From: an uncultured Bacteroidota bacterium
Lineage (GTDB): Bacteria; Bacteroidota; Bacteroidia; Bacteroidales; 4484-276
Length of the DNA stretch: 64,000 nt
Direction: 5' to 3'
Assembly: GCA_937950125.1 (NCBI GenBank)
Contig: CALFEP010000039.1
Span: forward strand, 3,079 to 67,078
Below are positions 1,170 to 43,304 of the stretch, piece by piece. The notes under the pieces are model-generated. The model saw nothing but the letters and a program-made list of their open reading frames with translations, was not told where the DNA came from and ran no database searches. The translations under genes and the position numbers were made by a program. Every line of letters begins with the position of its first letter. Position 1 is the first letter of the stretch.

Positions 1170-4082
1170 TTACCTTTTCAAAACTACTTTCTTCGTTTCC
1201 GAAAATTCGCTCCCGAAAAGCCTTACAAGGTAAACTCCTTCAGGAAAATCTGACAGATTTATGGTTCTGTTGGTTTTAGCTGAAGCGTTTAATTCATCAA
1301 AAACAACATTACCCTGAACGTTTAATATCTGCAAACGCGAATCAGCATCTGAGTTGATTGATACCGTAAATATTCCGGTTGAAGGATTCGGATAAACGGA
1401 AAAAATACTGCCGGAAGTTACAACAGTTTCTCCAGTATTTTCAAGCATATCCACCCTAACATCATCGATAAAAAGGTTGTTGCCAATAATTTTCACTGAT
1501 TCGAACATGATTTTTACGTTTTCATGACCAGCTGCCATGGAAACATCAATTGAATAACAATCGGCGCCAAAACCGGGGCCACACCAATCCTCGGGTGTTT
1601 GAGGGATGAAACTCTGGTTAAGTGGTTCACGTGTTACGAAATTACCTGAACCATCGTCGGCAACCGACATCAACCTTATCCAGGTATCACCACAATCGAG
1701 CGAAATTTTTACAACAAGTGAATCGGTGTATGTTAGATTGGTGCGTGCATAAGCATGTTTAAAATTCAGAAAATAATTGCCGGCAGCCGACATGTTTATT
1801 GGCGGGCTGATGAGCCTGTCGTGCTGGTTGAAAGCGTAATAATTGTAAAAATTAATGCCCGCTGCTTTATTTCCGGCACCACTTCCTTCAACATTCCACA
1901 CCGACCAGGTGACGCCGTTATCAGGATTTTCCACCGTCCAGCCGGCATCTTCAAGGGTAACCGATTCAAATGTGCCTACAAATGCCGGTGAGTTGATGCC
2001 TCCGGCAAAAATGTAATTCTCTTTGGTAAGCGCAGCGCTACCATTGGCATTGGTTGTTGTGAGTGTTACTGAAAATAATCCCGATTGGCTGAACAACACT
2101 TCAGGATTTTGAGATGTTGCTGAAGTCCCGTTCACGAATTCAAAGCCCGAGGGTGAGATTTCCCACAGCCAGCCGGTTGGACAAACCAGGGACTGATCCA
2201 TGAAATTTACAGTTCCGCCTGTACAAACCATTGTATCAGCCGCCATAAAGTGAACTTCCGGCATTGAACTGGTGCTGACCGTGATCATATTTTCGAAAAC
2301 TTTGGTATTGCTGCCATATTGGTTGGTTACAGTAAGGGTTACATCATAAACTCCAGCGTTTTGATACAAAATTCCTTCAGGATGCTGTTGATCCGATGTT
2401 GACGGCTGCCCGCCTTCAAATGTCCACAACCAGTTTTCGACTTCACAAACCGAATGGTCAGTAAAATCAACACTGCAGTTTTCGGTAATCAGACTGGCAG
2501 AAACAGAATAATCAGCAACCGGTGGTTTTTTCAGGTTCACTTCAAAAGTGATGGTCTGACCAAGTTCGCCAATGTTAAAAATATCCATTCCGGCAGGTTG
2601 ACCATTCGACAAAAAGCCCTGTGGATTCGTGTTGTCATTAAACTCAGTTCTTCCAAAATCAGCTGCAAAAGCTGCCTGACTGAGATTCCCGTTAACAGTG
2701 AGTGTTCCGTTGGGACGATAAATATACACCTCATCAGGGGGTCCCTGGGCATTTCCATTTCCTTCCTCAAGCAGATTTATTTTATAAATGATCAGGCCTG
2801 ATGAAGGCAATGTTCCTTCAAATGTTCCATCTTTTATCCGGTATTCGAGTACAAAAATATCGGTGACCGAATTGGGAGACGCAATTTTGAAGCAATTGTT
2901 AAACTCTGAGGTTAAGGGGTTTAAAGTATAAGTTCCGCACTCGGTAATTTCAGGAATCTCATCAATCCACTGGCCGTAACGGTATTTCATGTAGGCGCCC
3001 ATCAACTGGGGCGGGTTGTGATTGGCACACATTACGTCCCAATCACCCACCGCATCAACAGGTTGTGAAGTATAATGGTAGAGATCGGGAGCTCCAAGCG
3101 AATGGTTCATTTCGTGGCACAAAACTCCGTTACCACTCGATGTGAGATGATTTTGAATCTGGAAATTGTAATCGTAAACCCTTTTTCCGTTGATATAAAC
3201 ATTTTGACTGTAGAGTACCCAACGATGTGGCCAGAGCAGTGTTGCCCAGGCTGTGGTGGCTCCTTTTACAATAAAAACCATGTTGTCAACATTGCCGTCG
3301 TTGTTATAATCGATGTCCAAATCATCGGGTACCTCAGCTTCAACGTAAAGTATGGCACGTTTCAGCAATGCATGCTCCCTGGCAGCTACCTCACCTTCCT
3401 GGTAACCCTGTGGATTTGTAATAGGATCGTAAGGCATGTAATATGCCCTTGGATAAATATCCTGATACGAAATCACCGTATTGGCCGGTGGAACCGGGTA
3501 AAAAAACGAAGGTACGGAAAGCTTGTTGTAAGATGCAAAACGGAAATAATTCAACATGGAACTGTACCCTGGTTCCGTGTTATTGAACATATTGGTAAAA
3601 AGGGTAGTGTCTTCGGTGTATTCAGTCTGGTCGCTGAAACGGATATAAACCACCAGATTGTTAAGGGTTCCTATATTCCGACCGCTTCTGTAAGGTTTGT
3701 AACCGGGGTTTGTTGGTGGAACTGGCATCTGTGTTTTCAGGAAATCCGCCCGTTTTTGCTGCATTTTTTCCGGACTGATGTTTATCCAGGGCATAAGACC
3801 AACAGCCACCGGGTCAACCTCACCAACAACAAATGCAGAAGGTTTTAACATGCCGTTTTCGATAACAGCATATGTGTAAAAACCATTTTCGTGATTTTGA
3901 ATGATGGTAAAACCCTTGTCATCATGCAGCCAGTTGTAAAACTCATCACCAGTGGCCAGGCAGGTAATAATTGTTCCATCAGGCTGAGTGATGGTTTGTG
4001 GTTCGTTGGTAAGCCAGGCTGCTGATACCATCAGCTGGCTAAACAACAATAGTGTCAAAATAAAAAATTGAACATGCTTCAT
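1170..4082 (-). CDS. Secreted zinc metalloprotease (HExxH, M6/immune-inhibitor-A-like) with PKD-like repeats and a T9SS C-terminal sorting domain
   Basis: Has an N-terminal signal peptide and the motif LCHEMNHSLGAPDLYH. Repeated beta-sandwich segments occur (VYDVTLTVTN, LFSVTLTTTN). The C-terminus reads VYPNPSTGIFTVSI...GVYLVRL. Confidence 0.75.
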   Translation of the reverse strand: MKHVQFFILTLLLFSQLMVSAAWLTNEPQTITQPDGTIITCLATGDEFYNWLHDDKGFTIIQNHENGFYTYAVIENGMLKPSAFVVGEVDPVAVGLMPWINISPEKMQQKRADFLKTQMPVPPTNPGYKPYRSGRNIGTLNNLVVYIRFSDQTEYTEDTTLFTNMFNNTEPGYSSMLNYFRFASYNKLSVPSFFYPVPPANTVISYQDIYPRAYYMPYDPITNPQGYQEGEVAAREHALLKRAILYVEAEVPDDLDIDYNNDGNVDNMVFIVKGATTAWATLLWPHRWVLYSQNVYINGKRVYDYNFQIQNHLTSSGNGVLCHEMNHSLGAPDLYHYTSQPVDAVGDWDVMCANHNPPQLMGAYMKYRYGQWIDEIPEITECGTYTLNPLTSEFNNCFKIASPNSVTDIFVLEYRIKDGTFEGTLPSSGLIIYKINLLEEGNGNAQGPPDEVYIYRPNGTLTVNGNLSQAAFAADFGRTEFNDNTNPQGFLSNGQPAGMDIFNIGELGQTITFEVNLKKPPVADYSVSASLITENCSVDFTDHSVCEVENWLWTFEGGQPSTSDQQHPEGILYQNAGVYDVTLTVTNQYGSNTKVFENMITVSTSSMPEVHFMAADTMVCTGGTVNFMDQSLVCPTGWLWEISPSGFEFVNGTSATSQNPEVLFSQSGLFSVTLTTTNANGSAALTKENYIFAGGINSPAFVGTFESVTLEDAGWTVENPDNGVTWSVWNVEGSGAGNKAAGINFYNYYAFNQHDRLISPPINMSAAGNYFLNFKHAYARTNLTYTDSLVVKISLDCGDTWIRLMSVADDGSGNFVTREPLNQSFIPQTPEDWCGPGFGADCYSIDVSMAAGHENVKIMFESVKIIGNNLFIDDVRVDMLENTGETVVTSGSIFSVYPNPSTGIFTVSINSDADSRLQILNVQGNVVFDELNASAKTNRTINLSDFPEGVYLVRLFGSEFSETKKVVLKR

Positions 4083-20994: not shown

Positions 20995-23475
20995 ATGAAG
21001 TTTTTTACTTTCCCATTGGGATTATTCGTGCTGGTTTTTTTTCTTGCTGCCTGTCCTGAATTATTTGGGCAGACAACAAAAATTATGGGCACAGCCAAAG
21101 ATGCCCAATCGGGAGAGCCGTTACCATTTGTCAACATCGTTTTCAAAGGAACCACCATTGGCGTTACTACCGGTTTTGACGGTAATTATGCCATCGAAAC
21201 CAAAAATCCCGGCGATAGTCTCATCGCCTCTTTTATTGGCTATATCCAACAGGTTAAACCTGTCGAAAAAGGAAAGTTTCAGTACATCAATTTTATTATG
21301 GAACCCACCAACTTTGAACTCGAAACGGTAGTTATCAAAGCTGGTGAAAACCCAGCCGAAGTGCTGCTTAGAAAAATTATTGCCAACAAACCCCTGAATG
21401 ACCCGGATAAATACGATGCATATCAATACGAGGCCTACAACAAAATTCAGATTGATGCCAACAACATCAACGAAAAATTCATGCAACGAAGAATTTTCAG
21501 GCCTTTTCAGTTCATTTTTGATAACGTTGACACCTCAACCGTTAATGGGAAAACCTACTTGCCTATTTTTCTTTCCGAGTCAATTTCAGAAGTTTATTCA
21601 AAACGAAATCCCAGGGCCACAATCGAATTCATTAAAGCAACCAAGGTTTCGGGCATCGAAAACGAAAGCATGATGCAGTTTTTGGGTGATAAATTTCAAC
21701 ATACCAACATTTACGACAATTTTATAGAAATTTTTCAGAAAAACTTCGTCAGCCCGATAGCAAATTCCGGAATAAGTTTTTACAAATATTACCTTATCGA
21801 CAGTGCTTTTCACGGCAACAAATGGTGCTATAAAGTGATGTTTAAACCCCGCCACAAACAAACACTCACCTTCACCGGTCATTATTGGGTACACGATACA
21901 ACCTTTGCAATCAAGGAGATAGAAATGAAAATTGCCGGAGATGCAAACCTGAATTTTGTAAATGATCTGGTGATTTCGAAAGAATTCGATTTAATAGATG
22001 GAAAATACTGGCTCCTGACAAAAGACTATGCCATCGGCGATTTTAATGTGATCGAAGACAACAAGGAAGTGCTTGGATTTTTCGGAAGAAAAACAACCAC
22101 CTACCGAAATTTTTTCATTAACCAGCCAAAAGATGACAAGTTTTATTCCCGACCGGTAAATGTAATTGTCGAGGATAGTGCCTCGCTCAAGGAAAGCAAT
22201 TTCTGGATCGAAAACCGGCATGAAGAGCTTACCCGCGACGAAAAAACCATTTACTTCATGGTTGATACCCTGAAAACAATACCCCGGTTCAACACCTATA
22301 TTGATATTATTCAAATGATTACAACCGGGTATTATGTGACTGGAAATTTTGAAATCGGGCCTTATGCCTCATTGTTAAGTTTTAATGCTGTTGAAGGAGC
22401 TCGTTTGCGGTTTGGAGGCCGAACAAGCAATCAGTTCAGCAAGAAAGTTATGTTTGACGCTTACGGCGCCTACGGAACCCTTGATTCGCGCTGGAAATAC
22501 GGCGGTGGATTTCTTTACATGTTAAATAAAAATCCACGGAGGGCTTTGGGCGGATCATTCAAATACGACCTCGAACAATTGGGTGCAAGTCAGAATGCTT
22601 TCCGGGAAGATTTTTTCTTTGCCTTCATCTTCAGAAGAAACCCGGCTGACAAGCTTTCGATGGTGGACGAAACCCGGCTTTATTACGAACACGAATGGTT
22701 TAATGGCTTTCAGAATACCTTTAATGTGATCCACAGAAATTTGTATCCTATCGGAGATTCAAAATTCGAATATTATCCCACACCCGACAGCACCGTTGAC
22801 CAAAATGCACTCACCACCACCGAAGTACGCCTGAGCACACGGCTGGCATACAAGGAACGGTTTCTGATGGGCGAGTTTGAACGGGTTAGCCTCGGCGCCA
22901 AGTTCCCAATCCTTGAAATTGCTTATGGTTACGGCATTCCCGACAGGCTCGGCGGTGAATTTGAATATCATAAACTTCAGCTTCGTTTAAGCCATTGGTT
23001 TAACCTGGCCAATTTTGGCTGGTCGAAATATGTACTCGAAACCGGCAGAATATGGGGAACCCTGCCCTACCCCCTCCTTAAACTTCACGAAGGCAATGAA
23101 ACCTTTTTCTTCGACGAATACGCCTTCAACCTGATGAACTATTACGAATTCGTGAGCGACAGATACATTTCGGCCTACTACACCCATCATTTTGATGGCT
23201 ATTTTTTCAACCGTGTTCCGTTGCTACGCAAATTAAAATGGCGTGAAGTAGCTTTTATAAAAGGCCTGGCAGGGGGGATTGGGGACAATAACCGCACGTA
23301 TTCGGTTTTTCCTGAAAACACATCTTTCCTTGATAAACCATACTTTGAAGCAGGTGCTGGCGTCGAAAATATTTTCAAATTTTTGCGTGTGGATGCTATC
23401 TGGAGGCTTTCATACCTCGATCATCCCAACATTACCCCATTTGGCCTGATGATGAGTATGCAGTTTTCGTTTTAG
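20995..23475 (+). CDS. CarboxypepD_reg-like domain plus DUF5686 outer-membrane-associated protein
   Basis: Signal peptide is followed by [39 protein letters not shown] long beta-rich region follows, ending in ...MSMQFSF. Confidence 0.7.
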
Positions 23476-23484
23476 CATAGGGCA

Positions 23485-23589
<105 letters not shown>

Positions 23590-23616
23590 GAGGGTTGGAT
23601 GTTTATTTGTGTGGTT

Positions 23617-23649
23617 TTGGGCGGGATAGGGGTTAAATGAATAGTTTTG
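23617..23649 (+). promoter_or_regulatory. Candidate Bacteroidota-type promoter for lptB
   Basis: TTG (23617-23619), a 22-nt spacer, then TAGTTTTG (23642-23649, matches TAnnTTTG). It lies 36 nt upstream of the ATG. The spacer is slightly long. Confidence 0.3.
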
Positions 23650-28094: not shown

Positions 28095-29669
28095 ATGACA
28101 TTACCTGGCTGGATAAACCGAACCAACATTTATTATTTCACACTGGTTCTTACACTTGTGGCACTGCCACTCTCTAAATATGTGATGAGCATGGCGCAGC
28201 TGATGATGGTGACCAACTGGTTGTTCGACCCATCGTTGTTGAGGAAATTCAGGGATTTTTTCAGAAACCGGGCTGCCATGGTCATCGTTTCTTTATTTGC
28301 ATTGCATGTGGTGGGCTTAATCTGGACCACCGATTTCGATTATGCCCTGAAAGACCTGCGCACCAAACTACCAATTCTGGCACTCCCAATTATCATTTCT
28401 ACCTCGCCAAAAATTGACAAAAAACTGTTTTATCAGTTCATGGTCCTGTTTATTGCTGCAAACGTGGCGGGTTCGCTTTTCAGCATAAAGGAACTTTTGG
28501 CAAAAGACATTCACGAAATCAGGACAATTTCATTGTTTATTTCACACATCAGGTTTAGCCTGAATATTTGTGTTGCCGTATTTTCAGGAGTTTATCTTGT
28601 TTTTGTGGTTAAATTCGGGAATACAGCCGTCAAATCGGCTATTTTGGCGGCAATCGTCTGGCTGCTGGTTTTCATGGTTATCCTCGAAGCCATCACGGGG
28701 TTGGTTATTTTCCTGATAACATCTGTAATCCTGTCTGTTCTGCTCATTTTCCATTCAAAAAACAGGTGGTTACGATATTCAACGGCATTGCTGGTTGTGG
28801 TTCTGCCGGTATTCATTTTCTTTTACCTGCGCGGGATTTATCTCGAAACAATCCCAAAGAAATCCTTTAATGATCCGGAACTTGAACAATTTACAACACT
28901 TGGTAATCCTTACCTGCATGATTCAACCCTGAAAGGAACTGAAAACGGTTATTGGACAGGCCAGTACATTCAGCAGGACGAAATGCGCGAGGTGTGGAAC
29001 GCACGTAGCAACATTAAGTACGACAGTGTGGATGCTTCAGGTAACTATCTCCGTTTTACGCTGATCCGTTTTCTTACTTCGAAAGGATTGCGTAAAGATG
29101 CTGCCGGTGTAAAAGCTCTGAATGAAAAGGAAGTTGAAGCCATCGAAAACGGAATTGCCAATGTACGTAATTTAACCAAAACCAGCCTGAAAACCAGAAT
29201 TATGACCATTTTCTGGGAACTTCAGTTGTACCGCGAATCGGGCTATATGAGCGGACATTCGGTAGCACAAAGGTTTGAGTTCTGGCGGGCTGCAGGACGC
29301 ATTATTCAGGAAAATTTCTGGCTGGGAACCGGAACAGGCGACATATTTCAGGCCTTTCAGGTTGAATATGACGAGATGCAAACTTCGCTTGAGCCCCTTT
29401 ACCGCTGGAGAAGCCACAACCAATACATGTCGATGCTGGCGACATTTGGTATTTTTGGATTGTTGTGGTTTCTGGTGGTGATGGTTTATCCGGCATGGCA
29501 TCTCAACATGTACCGCGACTATTTTTACCTTGTATTTTTTATTATTCTTTTAATTTCAATGATAACCGAGGACACCATCGAAAGCCAGGCTGGATGCACG
29601 TTTTATGCGTTTTTTACGTCCTTCTTTTTGTTGGCAAGAAAAGAAAAAGACACACGCTTTGTGAAATAA
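28095..29669 (+). CDS. O-antigen ligase (Wzy_C) family membrane protein
   Basis: About 10 TM segments with a large loop containing WLGTGTGD and RSHNQYMSMLATFGIFGL. The ATG at 28095 is preferred over the TTG at 28086. Confidence 0.75.
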   Translation: MTLPGWINRTNIYYFTLVLTLVALPLSKYVMSMAQLMMVTNWLFDPSLLRKFRDFFRNRAAMVIVSLFALHVVGLIWTTDFDYALKDLRTKLPILALPIIISTSPKIDKKLFYQFMVLFIAANVAGSLFSIKELLAKDIHEIRTISLFISHIRFSLNICVAVFSGVYLVFVVKFGNTAVKSAILAAIVWLLVFMVILEAITGLVIFLITSVILSVLLIFHSKNRWLRYSTALLVVVLPVFIFFYLRGIYLETIPKKSFNDPELEQFTTLGNPYLHDSTLKGTENGYWTGQYIQQDEMREVWNARSNIKYDSVDASGNYLRFTLIRFLTSKGLRKDAAGVKALNEKEVEAIENGIANVRNLTKTSLKTRIMTIFWELQLYRESGYMSGHSVAQRFEFWRAAGRIIQENFWLGTGTGDIFQAFQVEYDEMQTSLEPLYRWRSHNQYMSMLATFGIFGLLWFLVVMVYPAWHLNMYRDYFYLVFFIILLISMITEDTIESQAGCTFYAFFTSFFLLARKEKDTRFVK

Positions 29670-29918
29670 CAAATGACAAAATTCAAATAACAAGTAAATT
29701 CCAATTTGAGTACAAACCACCCCGAACAATAAACGACAAACAAGGAACCCGCCCTTCGACAGGCGTTCGACTGAGCTAAGCCGAAGTCTCAGGGCTCGGT
29801 GAGCTGAACAACGAACAAGGAACAAGGAACAAGGAACAACAAACAAGGAACCCGCCCTTCGACAGGCTCAGGGCTCGGTAACCCGAACAACAAACAACGA
29901 ACAAGGAACAACAATAAA
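29668..29918. repeat. Heptanucleotide-periodic array (GAACAAS units, degenerate A-rich units at the 5' side) embedding two copies of a hairpin core
   Basis: gaacaac gaacaag gaacaag gaacaag gaacaac aaacaag lies between core 1 (29748-29799) and core 2 (29851-29878). It resumes as gaacaac aaacaac gaacaag gaacaac aataaag. Confidence 0.85.
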
Positions 29919-39845: not shown

Positions 39846-40100
39846 TAATATTCTGGGATTGAATTCCTTCATTCATCCCGTACAAATGCATTCGCTATCA
39901 AAGCTTTGTGTCTTTGTGGCTATTCTTTTTGCCTCAAATACACAAAGGAACAAAGAAATCAGTTTAAAAAAATAAAGAGGTCAGATTGCTGTGTTTATTC
40001 AGGAAAACTGAACCATTTGATTTCTGATTGGTTTAACATCACAAGCGGCAATAGTTCTATTTTTGCATGTCGTTTTAAAAACCAAAATTGAGGGAAATAA

Positions 40101-40463: not shown

Positions 40464-40850
40464 ATGGTTAAAATACTTTACCTGATCCTGGGCGGAGCAA
40501 CCGGAACACTACTCAGATATTGGGTTTCGGGATTGCCACACAAAATTTATGATGGGGTATTTCCGTGGGGCACCCTGATTGTAAATCTTGCAGGTTCATT
40601 TTTAATCGGGTTCAGCTACGGGTTTTTGGGAAGAGAAAATATTTCAACTAATGTTAAGTTGTTTTTATTCATCGGCATTTTCGGGAGTTTTACCACCTTT
40701 TCAACTTTTGCTTTCGAAAGTTTGAACCTGATTCGTGACGGAAATATTAAATTTGCATTAATCAACATGTTAGCCAGCAATATTCTGGGAGTTTTTCTGG
40801 TGTATGTTGGTTTCGTTGTGTCAAAATTATTGTTGAACTTCAAATTTTAA
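40464..40850 (+). CDS. crcB: Fluoride ion channel CrcB/FluC
   Basis: 128 aa with 4 TM segments. Motifs GGATGTLLRY, GTLIVNLAGSFLIGF and GSFTTFSTF are present. Confidence 0.9.
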   Translation: MVKILYLILGGATGTLLRYWVSGLPHKIYDGVFPWGTLIVNLAGSFLIGFSYGFLGRENISTNVKLFLFIGIFGSFTTFSTFAFESLNLIRDGNIKFALINMLASNILGVFLVYVGFVVSKLLLNFKF

Positions 40851-41194
40851 TGATGCAAAACTTACCCGAAAATGGTGTGAAACTGAGGATTTACATTGGC
40901 GAATCCGATACCTGGAAAGGCGAAAATCTTTCGACGGCTATTGTGTTGAAGGCAAAAGAGATGAAACTTGCGGGAGCTACTGTTTTCAGGGGCATTATGG
41001 GTTTTGGCGCCAACAGCCACCTTCATACAACAAAAGTGCTGAGGCTTTCGGAGGATTTGCCGGTTTTGGTTGAAATTGTTGACACAGAGGAAAATATAGA
41101 AAAAATAATGCCTTTCATCGAAGAAACTGTAAAGCAGGGCATGGTAACTCAGGAACGGGTGAATGTGAAACTTTACAGGGCGGAGAGGCAGTAG
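40850..41194 (+). CDS. DUF190 (PII-like) protein, commonly crcB-associated
   Basis: [11 protein letters not shown]...[11 protein letters not shown] matches the DUF190 pattern. Its start overlaps the crcB stop by 1 nt. Confidence 0.75.
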
Positions 41195-41446
41195 GCAGTG
41201 GGAAGTATGCAGTAAGCAGTAGGCAGTGGGCAGTGGTTTCGACAAGCTCAACCACCAGTGAGTTGTGGGCAGTAGGCAGTAGGCAGTAGGCAGTGGGCAG
41301 TAAGCAGTAGGCAGTAAATTACCTCCTAAGACTGGCGACTGGCAACTGAAGACTGCCGACCGGAGACTGCCAACTGAAGACTGCCGACTGGAGACTGCCA
41401 ACTGAAGACTAACGACTTACGACTAACGACTTACGACTTACGACTA
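41185..41446. repeat. Composite heptanucleotide-periodic array: GGCAGTR units, a hairpin core, GGCAGTR units, a 28-nt (4x7) GACTGCC-containing repeat x2, then CGACTTA/CGACTAA units
   Basis: Read directly. The 28-mers at 41349-41376 and 41377-41404 differ at one base. The array starts within the last codons of the DUF190 CDS and ends 7 nt before the next ATG. Confidence 0.9.
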
Positions 41447-41452
41447 AATAAA

Positions 41453-42022
41453 ATGCACGACATCGAACCATATTATTCGTGGAGAAACCTGTACATCGCT
41501 TCGGAGGATGAGCGCTCGCCTTTTTACGAACGTGAATACAGCGAGTTTGAGTTCACCCACGCCATCTACAACCATCTTATTCATCCGCAATGGGACGAGT
41601 TTGGTTCTGCAACCCTGTATCTCAAAATTTTATTTGTGAATTACAAAACCAGGTTTGCCATTATTGAGTTGATTGGCGAATGGAACGACTGCCTTTACAA
41701 CGATGTTATGTTTCTGAAGCGCAATGTTGCTGAACCCCTGGCAGACGAAGGGATCAATAAATTTATCCTGCTGGGTGAAAATGTACTCAATTTCCATTAT
41801 GGCGACGACGATTATTATCAGGAGTGGTTTGAAGATATTGAAGACGGCTGGATTGTCGGGCTGAACTTCAGGCAGCATGTGATTGATGAATTTTCAAGGG
41901 CCAACCTTGACTATTATATTTCATTTGGCGGCCAGTTCGACACCATCAACTGGCGGGCTTACACTCCTGACAAGCTTTTTGAAAAAATTGAATACATTAT
42001 GCAACGACGTTTAACTTCGTGA
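41453..42022 (+). CDS. Hypothetical protein (189 aa, acidic, no recognised domain)
   Basis: Clean ORF with an ATG start and compact spacing to neighbouring genes. Confidence 0.55.
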   Translation: MHDIEPYYSWRNLYIASEDERSPFYEREYSEFEFTHAIYNHLIHPQWDEFGSATLYLKILFVNYKTRFAIIELIGEWNDCLYNDVMFLKRNVAEPLADEGINKFILLGENVLNFHYGDDDYYQEWFEDIEDGWIVGLNFRQHVIDEFSRANLDYYISFGGQFDTINWRAYTPDKLFEKIEYIMQRRLTS

Positions 42023-42323: not shown

Positions 42324-43304
42324 TTATTCCTGATTATCCGAAATTACTGATATCAAACCTTTAAAAGTTTCTGCCACTTCTTTTTCGTCAGGAATATTTT
42401 TAAAAGCTAACAGCGGTAACTCCCTGGTGTAAACCGGTCTAAGTTTTTTCCATAAGAAATCAAAATCCTTCAATAACGGGGATTCTGAAATGTTTTTGAA
42501 TTTCCAGCCATCAGGTTCATCAAAAGCATTTTTGTCAATTTCGATTACATTTTTCAAATCGGACAAAAAATTTCCGCTATTCAGATATGTTGTGGTTTCC
42601 ACAGCCTTAATCAAGAAATAAATATCATAAAAATGTCTGATTTTCGTTGACAAAACCTGCAAGTAATCAGCTGAAAATGAAAACCTGATGAGTGAAGCAA
42701 GTTTTTCGATCAAAGTCCTGTTTTTATCCAAAGCATTTAGCGAAAAAGTCTGTAAACCATATTTGGAAACCAGGTCATCCCTGCCGTTTTTTTCAAAAAA
42801 CTACCCGATCATACTTTGAATTTCAACCTTTTGCCAGGGTGAAGCGTTGCCAAATGAATTTATCTCGATAATGATGGATTTTTCAGGTTTTTCATGCATA
42901 AAATTCCCGGCAGGCTGTTGATAGGAATAAACAGCTTTTCTGAAACGAGACCCTTTGCTTGTTACGCCTGAAATGGCAATTTCGGTCATGTCCTGTGATA
43001 TTTCCTTTTCAACATTTCTTATCAGGCTTTTGATTTGATTGCCAGTCATTTCATTGGTATTTATCACTGCTAAATCAACATCTTCTGAAAAACGGTCAAT
43101 CAGTCTGAAGCCTTTTGAAAGTGATGTGCCGCCTTTAAAAACAACCGATTCGGCATATTTACTGCCAGACAACCGGGCCAGGGCAAGAGTAATCCAATAA
43201 TCCTTTTCGATATAGTCGTCACGAATAGAAAGGTTATCGGAAATTTCTGTTATAATGGACGCAAATAGAGCAGGTTCATTGTGTAACATCATTTTAACCT
43301 CCAT
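42324..43304 (-). pseudogene. AbiEii/AbiGii-family nucleotidyltransferase toxin interrupted by a single in-frame TAG
   Basis: The N-terminal part (42801-43304) has DYIEKDYWITLAL...VFKGGTSLSKGF..RFSEDVDL. The C-terminal part (42324-42731) is in the same frame. My hand translation of 42732-42800 (FFEKNGRDDLVSKYGLQTFSLNA) is open. The only stop is TAG at 42801-42803. Confidence 0.75.

Follow-up and report, generated by a model that had tools for sequence, protein, structure and literature searches.

A composite heptanucleotide array lies between the DUF190 gene and a gene for a 189-aa protein

The inspection of a 64-kb stretch of DNA from a Bacteroidota MAG (hereafter, the window) showed the 258-nt spacer between the DUF190 gene and the next gene to be filled by a tandem array of heptanucleotide units. 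It spans positions 41186-41447 and runs from GGCAGTR units, through GACTGCC units arranged with a higher-order period of 28 nt, to CGACTWA units. In the crcB-DUF190 pair, DUF190 comes second (crcB, PF02537, lies upstream). The downstream gene, whose product has homologues named Bacteroidales or Bacteroidota, is followed by an acylphosphatase gene, and a protein with a Por_Secre_tail domain (type IX secretion sorting) is encoded close by. The features are as follows:

40850-41194, + strand: DUF190 gene (ORF list; Pfam PF02641, E = 1.5e-39)
41186-41234, + strand: Array 1, seven RGGCAGT units (TRF period 7, 7.0 copies)
41233-41255, + strand: embedded hairpin core (stem GTGGTT/AACCAC, loop TCGACAAGCTC)
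41254-41316, + strand: Array 2, ACCAGTG and AGTTGTG followed by seven GGCAGTR units (TRF 41268-41316)
41317-41329, + strand: non-periodic loop AAATTACCTCCTA between the two arms (mean pairing probability 0.20)
41330-41404, + strand: 3' arm of GACTGSC, AACTGAA and GACYGGA units (TRF periods 28 and 7)
41405-41447, + strand: tail of about six CGACTWA units (TRF 41407-41447, 5.9 copies)
41453-42022, + strand: downstream gene, 189-aa conserved hypothetical protein (no Pfam domain)

TRF reported AGGCAGT repeated 7.0 times at 41186-41234, GGCAGTA repeated 7.0 times at 41268-41316 (90% matches), a period of 28 repeated 3.1 times at 41330-41417 (90% matches), GACTGCC repeated 10.7 times at 41330-41404 and GACTAAC repeated 5.9 times at 41407-41447. 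A preliminary description of this region (41185-41446) had listed the same components, and both TRF and direct reading place them at the coordinates it gave. The last two codons of DUF190 and its TAG stop (41192-41194) come from the first heptamer unit. Array 1 includes the partly degenerate units GGGAAGT, ATGCAGT and AAGCAGT, while ACCAGTG and AGTTGTG are degenerate units that open Array 2, the 5' arm of the main hairpin. The units of the 3' arm nearly match GGCAGTC read as its reverse complement and are arranged as a 28-nt (4x7) higher-order repeat. Its copies at 41349-41376 and 41377-41404, previously described as two super-repeats, read as then quoted and differ solely at the Y position. 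The array had been said to run from the end of DUF190 to 7 nt before the next ATG; the first part holds, while the tail actually stops 5 nt short of the ATG at 41453. The strict 7-nt register that had been proposed is kept where the GACTGNN arm passes into the CGACTWA tail, but it is broken at the hairpin core, across which the phase of the GGCAGTR units moves by 4 nt (81 nt = 11x7+4). The non-periodic parts are 18-19 nt of the core and the 13-nt loop at 41317-41329. The array also gives rise to spurious antisense ORFs, among them one at 40862-41401.

A sliding self-match scan of the 64 kb for periods of 2-15 nt detected only period 7 and its double, 14, with the period-7 signal confined to three intergenic loci (23486-23593, 29796-29861 and 41183-41457). 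The array is not unique within the window, in which TRF, suggested earlier for the whole genome, likewise gives three loci. The limits of the other two, from TRF and the sequence, are:

23474-23577, + strand: second locus, about 14 GGCAGWR units
29664-29914, + strand: third locus, AAATAAC, GAACAAG and AACAACA heptamers

All three loci start where the upstream gene ends, at its stop codon, and the genes beside them share no common functional theme. The second locus begins at the TAG stop of a DUF5686 gene; TAGTTTTG, a Bacteroidota-type -7 motif, lies downstream of it at 23642. Since this locus has no inverted arm, a hairpin is not general to the arrays of this genome. The third locus starts at the TAA that ends a Wzy_C gene, reaches the vicinity of a YegS/DAGK gene, and contains two copies of the hairpin core, one intact (29850-29878) and one split by a 24-nt insert (29753-29793).

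The embedded hairpin has a conserved loop and a covarying stem

The 23-nt hairpin noted earlier at 41233-41255 is present, with a 6-bp stem and an 11-nt loop. The 4-nt phase shift makes it appear as an insertion of 18-19 nt. The copy at 29850-29878 has the same loop, with a CCCT/AGGG stem in place of GGTT/AACC. A covariance model (R1) gave 32.9 bits for the 41233-41255 copy, itself part of the training set, and 37 bits and 9 bits for the copies of the third locus.

The core belongs to a widespread family of hairpins with a conserved TTCGACARGCTCA loop and a covarying stem. A scan for its form with a fixed CC/GG stem yielded 144 instances, spread over at least 120 contigs from metagenomes, a raw count that, for a 16-base pattern, could by itself be near chance. 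The stem extended beyond the pattern by a mean of 2.30, compared with 1.25 ± 0.09 in shuffled pairings (none of 200 reached the observed value), and double changes were seen in eight of nine stem pairs in an alignment preselected for at least three flanking pairs. The core thus has the traits of a short dispersed hairpin with a conserved loop and compensatory stem changes. Each of the three copies of the window is located within a heptamer locus, and those of L090 and L253 also adjoin arrays. A general tie between the core and GGCAGTR arrays was considered and rejected, as a 7-nt period was seen in only 3 of 244 flanks of metagenome copies. Among 120 genome loci, L090 alone carried an unambiguous copy, L024 being marginal (E = 0.031). 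A search of the literature by loop motif and heptamer returned only primers and shRNA backbones, and no description of the TTCGACARGCTCA-loop hairpin was found in the literature searched or in Rfam.

Predicted folding and transcription of the spacer

An exact inverted-repeat search found nothing and, since the arms are imperfect, folding was used instead. The + strand RNA had a predicted dG of -98.4 kcal/mol (z = -4.0 against dinucleotide shuffles), as compared with z = -2.1 for the - strand RNA; folding of the region had been proposed as a check. In the pairing map, Array 2 and the arm at 41330-41404 form about 34 expected base pairs, which agrees with the earlier statement that the left and right halves are imperfectly complementary. 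The predicted partner of Array 1 is mainly the tail (22 expected pairs). The region around the start codon (41441-41465) has a low pairing probability (0.26). Inverted arrays capable of forming a hairpin between co-directional genes are thus found at 41186-41447, and the homologous array of a relative (L246, see below) also folds arm to arm (z = -5.05).

Neither a sigma-70-like promoter nor a terminator-like site was found in 41195-41452; the hairpin is followed by CGACTWA units and not by a T run. The TAnnTTTG motif (the Bacteroidota-type -7 motif) is also absent from the spacer, its only nearby occurrence being at 40058, upstream of a DUF493 gene. A promoter within the spacer was therefore rejected, as was an intrinsic (Rho-independent) terminator, for which a T/U run should follow a GC-rich stem-loop. 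Rfam gave no family at gathering score across the whole window, only chance miRNA matches at E values up to 10 in 41100-41500, and no match to a fluoride riboswitch upstream of crcB. With no promoter- or terminator-like site in the spacer and the only nearby -7 motif upstream of DUF493, the array is most likely transcribed as part of a longer message, DUF493-crcB-DUF190-array-189-aa gene-acylphosphatase. On such an RNA, pairing between the GGCAGUR and GACUGCC arms would give a long, imperfect hairpin that should leave the start-codon region mostly open. Arrays 1 and 2 hold three, four and two stop codons in the three + frames; the GGCAGTA units also place TAG stops in all three frames right behind the upstream ORF.

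The array differs in whole units among strains and species

Five independent ENA assemblies from different samples carry the same array, identical in length and differing by one SNP. A co-occurring strain (L330) lacks 14 nt in Array 1 (two units) and 7 nt in Array 2 (one unit); these indels fall only in the 5' arms, so that arm lengths are not kept matched. A relative whose flanking protein is 89% identical (L246) has a homologous array of 164 nt with a single GGCAGTR arm, no hairpin core and another mix of units. Its tail comprises four ACTTACG-type units, compared with six in the window, its unit numbers differ in every sub-array, and the loop between its arms, GCAAATGGCTGGT, is unlike the window loop. 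Because of the 4-nt phase break and the absence of the core from L246, the core was probably acquired by insertion. In three further genomes (L251, L332 and L333) in which the 189-aa protein is at least 90% identical, a plain spacer of 73-77 nt is found with no array, and the crcB-DUF190 pair is missing.

Whole-unit length polymorphism, as in a microsatellite, thus exists among close relatives, and the comparison of strains that had been suggested yielded changes in 7-nt steps (L330, L246). These strain and species comparisons show the array to grow and shrink by replication slippage in whole 7-nt units. The array is labile in evolution and, as seen from L251, L332 and L333, dispensable for the downstream gene. 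The earlier remark that slippage would change both the spacing and the phase of the flanking genes stands for spacing only, since phase is meaningless between two separate ORFs. Contigs L005, L246, L330 and L331 end inside arrays; such an array breaks short-read contigs, and annotators of this genome should expect it as a labile spacer of little weight.

GGCAGTR arrays occur in many phyla with a fixed order of arms

Arrays of (GGCAGTR)x4 were detected in about 20 phyla and on 44 viral contigs, as compared with 14 and 19 for same-composition controls. Related arrays are present in isolate genomes, among them those of Aurantibacter aestuarii, Flavivirga amylovorans and Mesorhizobium loti, and arrays of many other heptamers are found elsewhere, both in genomes and in viruses. 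Where two inverted arms were present, the order was GGCAGT followed by ACTGCC in 26 loci (32 pairs), 31 to 0 at short spacing; the reverse order was seen in two cases only, both with a spacing above 330 nt. This polarity is independent of the orientation of the flanking genes, and an origin in convergent gene pairs was rejected, 14 modules lying between co-directional and 9 between convergent genes. Of 21 GGCAGTR arrays at low-GC loci, 18 were in the sense orientation directly after a gene; orientation at high-GC loci, (+,+) in 18 and (-,-) in 17, was given no weight because ORF shadows make the calls unreliable. One two-arm module is part of a kinase gene, whose reading frame it keeps. Where a contig holds several modules (three in L272, two each in L277, L268 and L289), these have unrelated spacers and arms of variable length, and the idea that they are copies of one mobile element was rejected on account of the unrelated spacers. 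An apparent co-occurrence of CGACTWA with GGCAGTR elsewhere was a counting artefact, L001-L005 being one organism. Simple slippage explains neither why one heptamer recurs in about 20 phyla nor why the polarity of the arms is fixed, the latter being the sole trait of the array that is out of the ordinary.

Origin and possible role of the array

The array is probably best explained as a composite heptanucleotide microsatellite, generated by slippage, with a likely role as an intercistronic RNA hairpin that is secondary to its mutational origin. Besides changing in length by slippage, it acquired a 28-nt higher-order duplication and, probably by insertion, a small hairpin with a conserved loop that resembles a REP (repetitive extragenic palindrome) or an SDR (small dispersed repeat) of cyanobacteria. 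It would most likely behave as a stem-loop between cistrons, a role that has been proposed for the STRR (short tandemly repeated repetitive sequences) lying between hupS and hupL and demonstrated for REP elements; it might shield the upstream message from 3' exonucleases or serve as a processing or insulating point. Any function is probably modest and takes second place to the way in which the array arose.

A purely neutral or selfish by-product, that is, slippage-prone filler whose hairpin potential is accidental and has no effect on the neighbours, is less probable but deserves serious consideration. Close relatives manage without the array, unit numbers and types drift freely, the neighbouring genes show no functional theme, and many different heptamers, including those of viruses, make arrays elsewhere. 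Against this, all three arrays of the window abut the upstream stop codon, the low-GC GGCAGTR arrays lie in the sense orientation right after a gene in 18 of 21 cases, and arm polarity is 31 to 0 at short spacing. Such a process is disfavoured because neutrality should not produce this orientation.

Two broader proposals are both improbable. According to the first, to which we give a small chance, the arm-polar arrangement (GGCAGTR)n-spacer-(YACTGCC)m is a pan-bacterial and phage class of intergenic hairpins shaped by a shared active mechanism, with the TTCGACARGCTCA mini-element travelling alongside. If this were true, the fixed order of arms and the position after stop codons would not come from independent slippage, a nuclease or transposase recognising GT[A/G]G or a translation-termination function based on stops in three frames would be candidates, and the 'very small mobile elements' of Elhai in cyanobacteria would extend to Bacteroidota and many phyla. 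The second, which is rather doubtful, treats the modules as polar palindromic elements, the substrates or products of a single-strand nuclease or of a transposase such as a RAYT (REP-associated tyrosine transposase) or an IS200/IS605-type enzyme, and not as passive products of slippage. GT[A/G]G is a hallmark of REP sequences, and it is contained in (GGCAGTR)n when this is written as (GTRG-GCA)n. The proposal is consistent with the occurrence in about 20 phyla and on 44 viral contigs (14 and 19 for the controls), with an arm order kept regardless of gene orientation in 26 loci, with the module in frame within a kinase gene and with the co-occurrence of REP-like hairpins and arrays. It is opposed by spacers that are unrelated even on one contig, by arm lengths that vary freely, by an L246 array that is a locally evolved homologue and no fresh insertion, by the lack of a transposase among the proteins beside the three arrays and in six small ORFs elsewhere, and by the ability of control heptamers to form arrays too.

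A contingency (phase-variation) locus, in which changes in the number of 7-nt units would turn the downstream gene on or off or adjust its expression as for hmw1A, is very unlikely. The polymorphism in co-occurring strains (-14 and -7 nt) and an array end only 5 nt before the start codon would fit it. However, with neither a promoter-like hexamer pair nor the Bacteroidota -7 motif in the spacer whose spacing the units could change, a role in phase variation is left without support. Moreover, phase-variable repeats sit inside an ORF or between promoter elements; this array follows one gene's stop codon and precedes the start codon of the next, outside any ORF. The comparison, made at the level of assemblies, gave the same length in five assemblies from different samples and one co-occurring variant, and the two other loci in the 64 kb lie beside unrelated housekeeping-type genes, unlike surface-antigen genes. 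Finally, an artefact in the assembly of low-complexity reads, which the preliminary description named as something that would overturn its reading and which the several contigs ending in arrays might suggest, is hardly credible, given the same 258-nt spacer in five independent assemblies and the related arrays in isolate genomes such as that of Aurantibacter aestuarii.

The slippage-generated microsatellite with a secondary hairpin role thus remains the reading we prefer. Two observations may deserve a systematic survey: same-heptamer arrays with an invariant arm order across about 20 phyla and viral contigs, and the TTCGACARGCTCA-loop hairpin throughout metagenomes. Either the arm-order rule or this hairpin could point to an unrecognised mechanism shaping bacterial intergenic DNA.

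Comparison with known repeat systems

The small dispersed hairpin repeats of Nostoc (SDR), reported by Elhai in 2008, are said to be confined to a subgroup of cyanobacteria. The core resembles them in being a hairpin some 20-30 nt long whose stem shows compensatory changes, embedded in the window in heptamer arrays and with a nested insertion in one copy; unlike SDR, the TTCGACARGCTCA-loop hairpin occurs in many metagenomes, mostly outside heptamer arrays. Elhai's SDR are mentioned in PMC3116915 and PMC4390886. Like REP/BIME and REPINs (PMC3116915), the two-arm modules are inverted repeats lying between genes; their spacers vary, and they can form hairpins in ssDNA or mRNA. The arms of REPINs are conserved unique sequences, copied around the genome by a RAYT (Bertels and Rainey 2011, PMC3116915), while those of the modules are tandem heptamers of variable number; modules on one contig have unrelated spacers and arms of variable length, and copies of a REPIN or MITE would share both arm and spacer sequence.

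In Haemophilus influenzae, a heptanucleotide SSR in the promoter or 5'-UTR upstream of hmw1A tunes adhesin expression (PMC8262952, PMC12721329). Like the window array, this SSR consists of 7-nt repeats between genes that gain or lose units by slippage, but the window spacer has no promoter or sign of a switch. The long simple sequence repeats (LSSR), with units of 5-11 nt, are commonest as heptanucleotides, and slippage is their proposed generator (Mrazek 2007, as summarised in PMC4679880). The polymorphism of the window array in 7-nt steps fits this origin; in that summary LSSR is a purely statistical category, silent on composite architecture or orientation.

The preliminary description likened the array to STRR elements, and the likeness is borne out: both consist of tandem 7-nt intergenic units, often in two inverted arrays capable of forming a hairpin. 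The units of STRR1-3, described by Mazel in 1990, are reportedly CCCCAGT, TTGGTCA and CAACAGT; none of the units of the window (GGCAGTR, GACTGCC, CGACTWA, GAACAAG) is among them. The hosts also differ, STRR belonging to heterocystous or filamentous cyanobacteria and the window array to a Bacteroidota MAG. Inverted STRR arrays often separate co-transcribed genes such as hupS-hupL, and the window array is most likely co-transcribed with its neighbours too. The 7-bp STRR hairpins between hupS and hupL have been suggested to act in transcript stability or translational coupling (PMC2670836).

The earlier remark that no described equivalent was known in Bacteroidota is contradicted by MacGregor (2015, PMC4679880), according to whom five Bacteroidetes carry TAACTGA repeats between genes, together with 'larger assemblages of heptamer repeats'. 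Gramella, Aequorivita and Elizabethkingia have mixed assemblages of several heptamer families, and direct repeats of TAACTGA and of other heptamers also occur in Beggiatoaceae and cyanobacteria (PMC4679880). Tandem TAACTGA is absent from 41185-41452, the nearest match being AACTGAA within GACTGCCAACTGAAGACTG, and inverted arms, an embedded hairpin and arm polarity are not described in that paper. The likeness lies in other traits: both sets of arrays are intergenic and often finish a few nt before a start codon, close relatives with the same gene neighbourhood lack the repeats, and the downstream genes follow no functional pattern (PMC4679880). In the window, forward intergenic repeats with such an ending precede the gene at 41453 (5 nt) and, at the 29664-29914 locus, the YegS/DAGK gene (15 nt). 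The array is thus of the same kind as the STRR, the LSSR and the heptamer assemblages of MacGregor's Bacteroidetes.

Layout of the heptamer spacer and of two further loci

The region 40800-41800 was read directly and set out in 7-nt steps. All blocks of the spacer between the DUF190 gene and the gene for a 189-aa protein (41186-41447) were recovered by Tandem Repeats Finder (TRF).

Heptamer loci in the window (basis in brackets)
41186-41234, + strand: array 1, seven RGGCAGT units (sequence in 7-nt steps, TRF)
41233-41255, + strand: hairpin core, 23 nt, stem GTGGTT/AACCAC, loop TCGACAAGCTC (sequence)
up to 41316, + strand: array 2, two degenerate units, then seven clean GGCAGTR units (sequence, TRF)
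3' of array 2: non-periodic loop, 13 nt (sequence)
41330-41404, + strand: 3' arm, GACTGSC, AACTGAA and GACYGGA units in 28-nt repeats (TRF)
up to 41447, + strand, 5 nt 5' of the ATG at 41453: tail, six CGACTWA units (TRF)
23474-23577: second locus, about 14 GGCAGWR units, inverted arm absent (sequence)
29664-29914: third locus, AAATAAC, GAACAAG and AACAACA units with two hairpin-core copies, one split by 24 nt (sequence)

The preliminary description of the spacer was essentially right, and all the repeat blocks it listed are present. The strict 7-nt register it proposed does not hold: there is a 4-nt break at the hairpin core, and the hairpin and the 13-nt loop are non-periodic. The sole periods that a self-match scan (periods 2-15) detected in the window were 7 and its double, 14, both confined to three intergenic sites in the 64 kb. 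All three loci begin at the stop codon of an upstream + strand gene (the ORF map places the DUF190 TAG inside the first array unit), and the loci at 23474-23577 and 29664-29914 reach almost to the following start codon. The neighboring genes are unrelated (DUF5686/ABC ATPase, Wzy_C/YegS-DAGK and DUF190/conserved hypothetical).

Variation among strains and relatives

Homologous contigs were found via the 189-aa downstream protein in several ENA assemblies (ERZ724080-87). The spacer had the same length in five assemblies, with one SNP; the array is therefore not a mis-assembly, a possibility raised earlier. Nor is it invariant. A second strain from the same sample series (L330), carrying a DUF190 variant, was shorter by 14 nt in array 1 and by 7 nt in array 2, and showed point changes. 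In a relative with an 89% identical flanking protein (L246), the DUF190-array-gene order was that of the window, and the spacer was 164 nt versus 258 nt in the window. It contained one GGCAGTR arm, no hairpin core, GACTGAA and GACTGCC units in other proportions and four tail units, and folded arm to arm (z = -5.05). Three relatives with 90% or higher identity in the 189-aa protein (L251, L332 and L333) lacked the crcB-DUF190 pair and had a plain 73-77 nt spacer 3' of DUF493; in a 75% identical relative the spacer was 35 nt. The array is thus homologous over short evolutionary distances, varies by whole units, and the 189-aa gene can do without it.

The crcB-DUF190 pair (40464-41194) is a variable cassette, its presence between DUF493 and the 189-aa gene differing among very close relatives (window compared with L251, L332, L333 and L247), and the array marks its 3' junction. 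Upstream of crcB, no fluoride riboswitch was found. Four short-read contigs (L005, L246, L330 and L331) terminate within or beside the array, so the repeats fragment assemblies. Further downstream, an AbiEii-family gene (42324-43304, - strand) adjoining a DUF6088 gene is a single 326-aa ORF in one contig of the same organism (L004, 3872-4852), but the window, L001, L002 and L005 each show it as two shorter ORFs, about 130 aa and 167 aa long; it may be the disrupted toxin of an AbiE-type pair. In a 74% identical relative, a 700-nt upstream region (L249 3800-3900/L250 500-600) contained AAATGAC-type heptamers flanking a different palindrome, CCGCCAGCTGGCGG, as well as a brief GCAGTNN run, so in this clade the combination of heptamers and an embedded hairpin also occurs with other sequences.

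Predicted folding and transcription context

The + strand spacer RNA was predicted to fold at -98.4 kcal/mol (z = -4.0), the - strand more weakly (z = -2.1). The partial complementarity of the halves noticed earlier was borne out: about 34 pairs would form between array 2 and the GACTGCC arm, and array 1 would pair mostly with the tail (about 22), while the start region of the 189-aa gene would stay largely unpaired (pairing probability 0.26). No sigma-70-like promoter, terminator-like site or Bacteroidota-type TAnnTTTG motif was found in 41195-41452; one TAnnTTTG motif was located upstream of DUF493, at 40058. From this we infer that the array would be transcribed within an operon.

Arrays 1 and 2 place stop codons in all three + strand frames and nearly none on the - strand. 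Because their YACTGCC strand is nearly stop-free, a spurious 179-aa ORF antisense to DUF190 (40862-41401, - strand) crosses them, and such arrays are a likely origin of false gene calls.

GGCAGTR arrays in other genomes and the order of their arms

Scanning one genome per species for (GGCAGTR)x3+GGCAGT returned at least 120 loci. The matches listed came from Planctomycetota, Acidobacteriota, Verrucomicrobiota, Chloroflexota, Cyanobacteria, Alphaproteobacteria, Streptomyces, Spirochaetes, Chlorobium and others, with many Bacteroidota (Flavobacteriales, Saprospiraceae, Chitinophaga, Mucilaginibacter, Algoriphagus, Prevotellaceae and Rikenella); they included the isolates Aurantibacter aestuarii, Flavivirga amylovorans and Mesorhizobium loti, and often carried further heptamer arrays. 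Viral contigs gave 44 loci versus 14 and 19 for two scrambled heptamers of the same composition, indicating that array formation is common to many heptamers, with GGCAGTR moderately favored. Unrelated metagenome DNA had fewer period-7 arrays (25 in 714 kb), none of the 25 being of GGCAGT type. At the low-GC loci listed, to which the orientation count was restricted since high-GC ORF calls are unreliable, 18 of 21 arrays lay directly 3' of a gene with GGCAGTR in sense orientation.

Among the genomic and viral matches listed, 26 loci (32 pairs) had a GGCAGT cluster ahead of an ACTGCC cluster, with spacers of 11-173 nt and one of 385 nt; the opposite order occurred only twice, at 339 and 353 nt. 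The window (41186-41404) and L246 are both GGCAGT-first. Ascertainment is ruled out as the source of this polarity, since each configuration is strand-symmetric. Control heptamers formed no inverted pairs. Among these matches, arm order was unaffected by whether the surrounding genes were convergent, co-directional or divergent, and the spacers were unrelated even for modules on one contig. In an Isosphaera sp. MAG (L066 7497-7574), a (GGCAGTG)4-spacer-(CACTGCC)3 module lies in frame within a Ser/Thr kinase gene, adding 28 residues between HRDLKPSNILL and PKVSDFG.

One tentative lead on this polarity is that arrays may be tolerated or seeded after stop codons solely in the orientation giving TAG in every frame. 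Another tentative lead is that (GGCAGTR)n can be read as (GTRG-GCA)n, which contains GT[A/G]G, the hallmark of repetitive extragenic palindromes recognized by REP-associated tyrosine transposases.

The hairpin core

At 29858 the loop TTCGACARGCTCA is found again, on another stem (CCCT/AGGG versus GGTT/AACC in the 41233-41255 core). A metagenome scan for this loop with a fixed CC/GG stem gave at least 144 instances, a raw count that may be near chance for a 16-base pattern. Among the matches listed, the flanks lengthened the stem (mean 2.30 extra pairs versus 1.25 ± 0.09 for shuffled partners), particular flanks recurred (e.g. GCGAAC, ATGAGG) and several contigs carried multiple copies; these three features are not near chance. 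An alignment of 37 sequences, preselected for at least three flanking pairs, had double changes at eight of nine pairs. With variable stems, such as GTTCGCCC..GGGCGAAC and CCTCGTCC..GGACGAGG, the hairpin is widespread in the metagenome contigs listed (L126-L245), often several per contig.

A covariance model found no window copy beyond the three, all of which therefore lie within heptamer loci. Outside the window this association is weak, a genomic locus (L090) and a viral contig (L253) each having one copy beside an array. Positions 29753-29793 and 29850-29878 hold two TTCGACAGGCTCA-loop hairpins within GAACAAG heptamers; the former is split by a 24-nt insert, GTTCGACTGAGCTAAGCCGAAGTC, itself similar to part of the core, which may be a nested insertion. 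In L253 (IMG/VR UViG_2767802479_000002, 66% GC), CCTCGTCCTTCGAGG-[GC-rich nested hairpin]-CCTCAGGATGAGG occurs seven times (e.g. 2891-2937, 3675-3719), a core variant with a nested hairpin replacing the loop, comparable to the interrupted window copy; one of the seven has a (GGCAGTA)6 array 20 nt away. Rfam contained no family for the core, and literature searched by motif yielded no published description of the TTCGACARGCTCA-loop hairpin.

Comparison with known systems

The spacer holds a genuine heptanucleotide array, slippage-shaped and of a kind already known; its RNA probably folds into an intercistronic hairpin whose importance is modest or nil. Tests of its class spoke against a contingency locus, an intrinsic terminator and a REPIN-type mobile element. 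Specialist interest is possible solely in the recurrence across phyla with fixed polarity and in the undescribed conserved-loop hairpin, both beyond the preliminary description.

The core resembles the small dispersed repeats of Nostoc, which Elhai reportedly found embedded in heptamer repeats and nested in one another.

Three described systems are nearest to the array. The suggestion that such arrays were new to Bacteroidota is contradicted by the heptamer repeats of MacGregor, which occur as mixed assemblages in five Bacteroidetes, are missing in some relatives and follow no functional pattern (PMC4679880). Among Mrazek's long SSRs, heptamers form the most frequent class, and slippage has been put forward to explain them (PMC4679880). 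Cyanobacterial short tandemly repeated repetitive (STRR) sequences are 7-bp repeats with hairpins in the hupS-hupL spacer, for which roles in stabilizing the transcript or coupling translation have been suggested (PMC2670836). The window array falls outside strict STRR membership by unit sequence and host, but works like an STRR.
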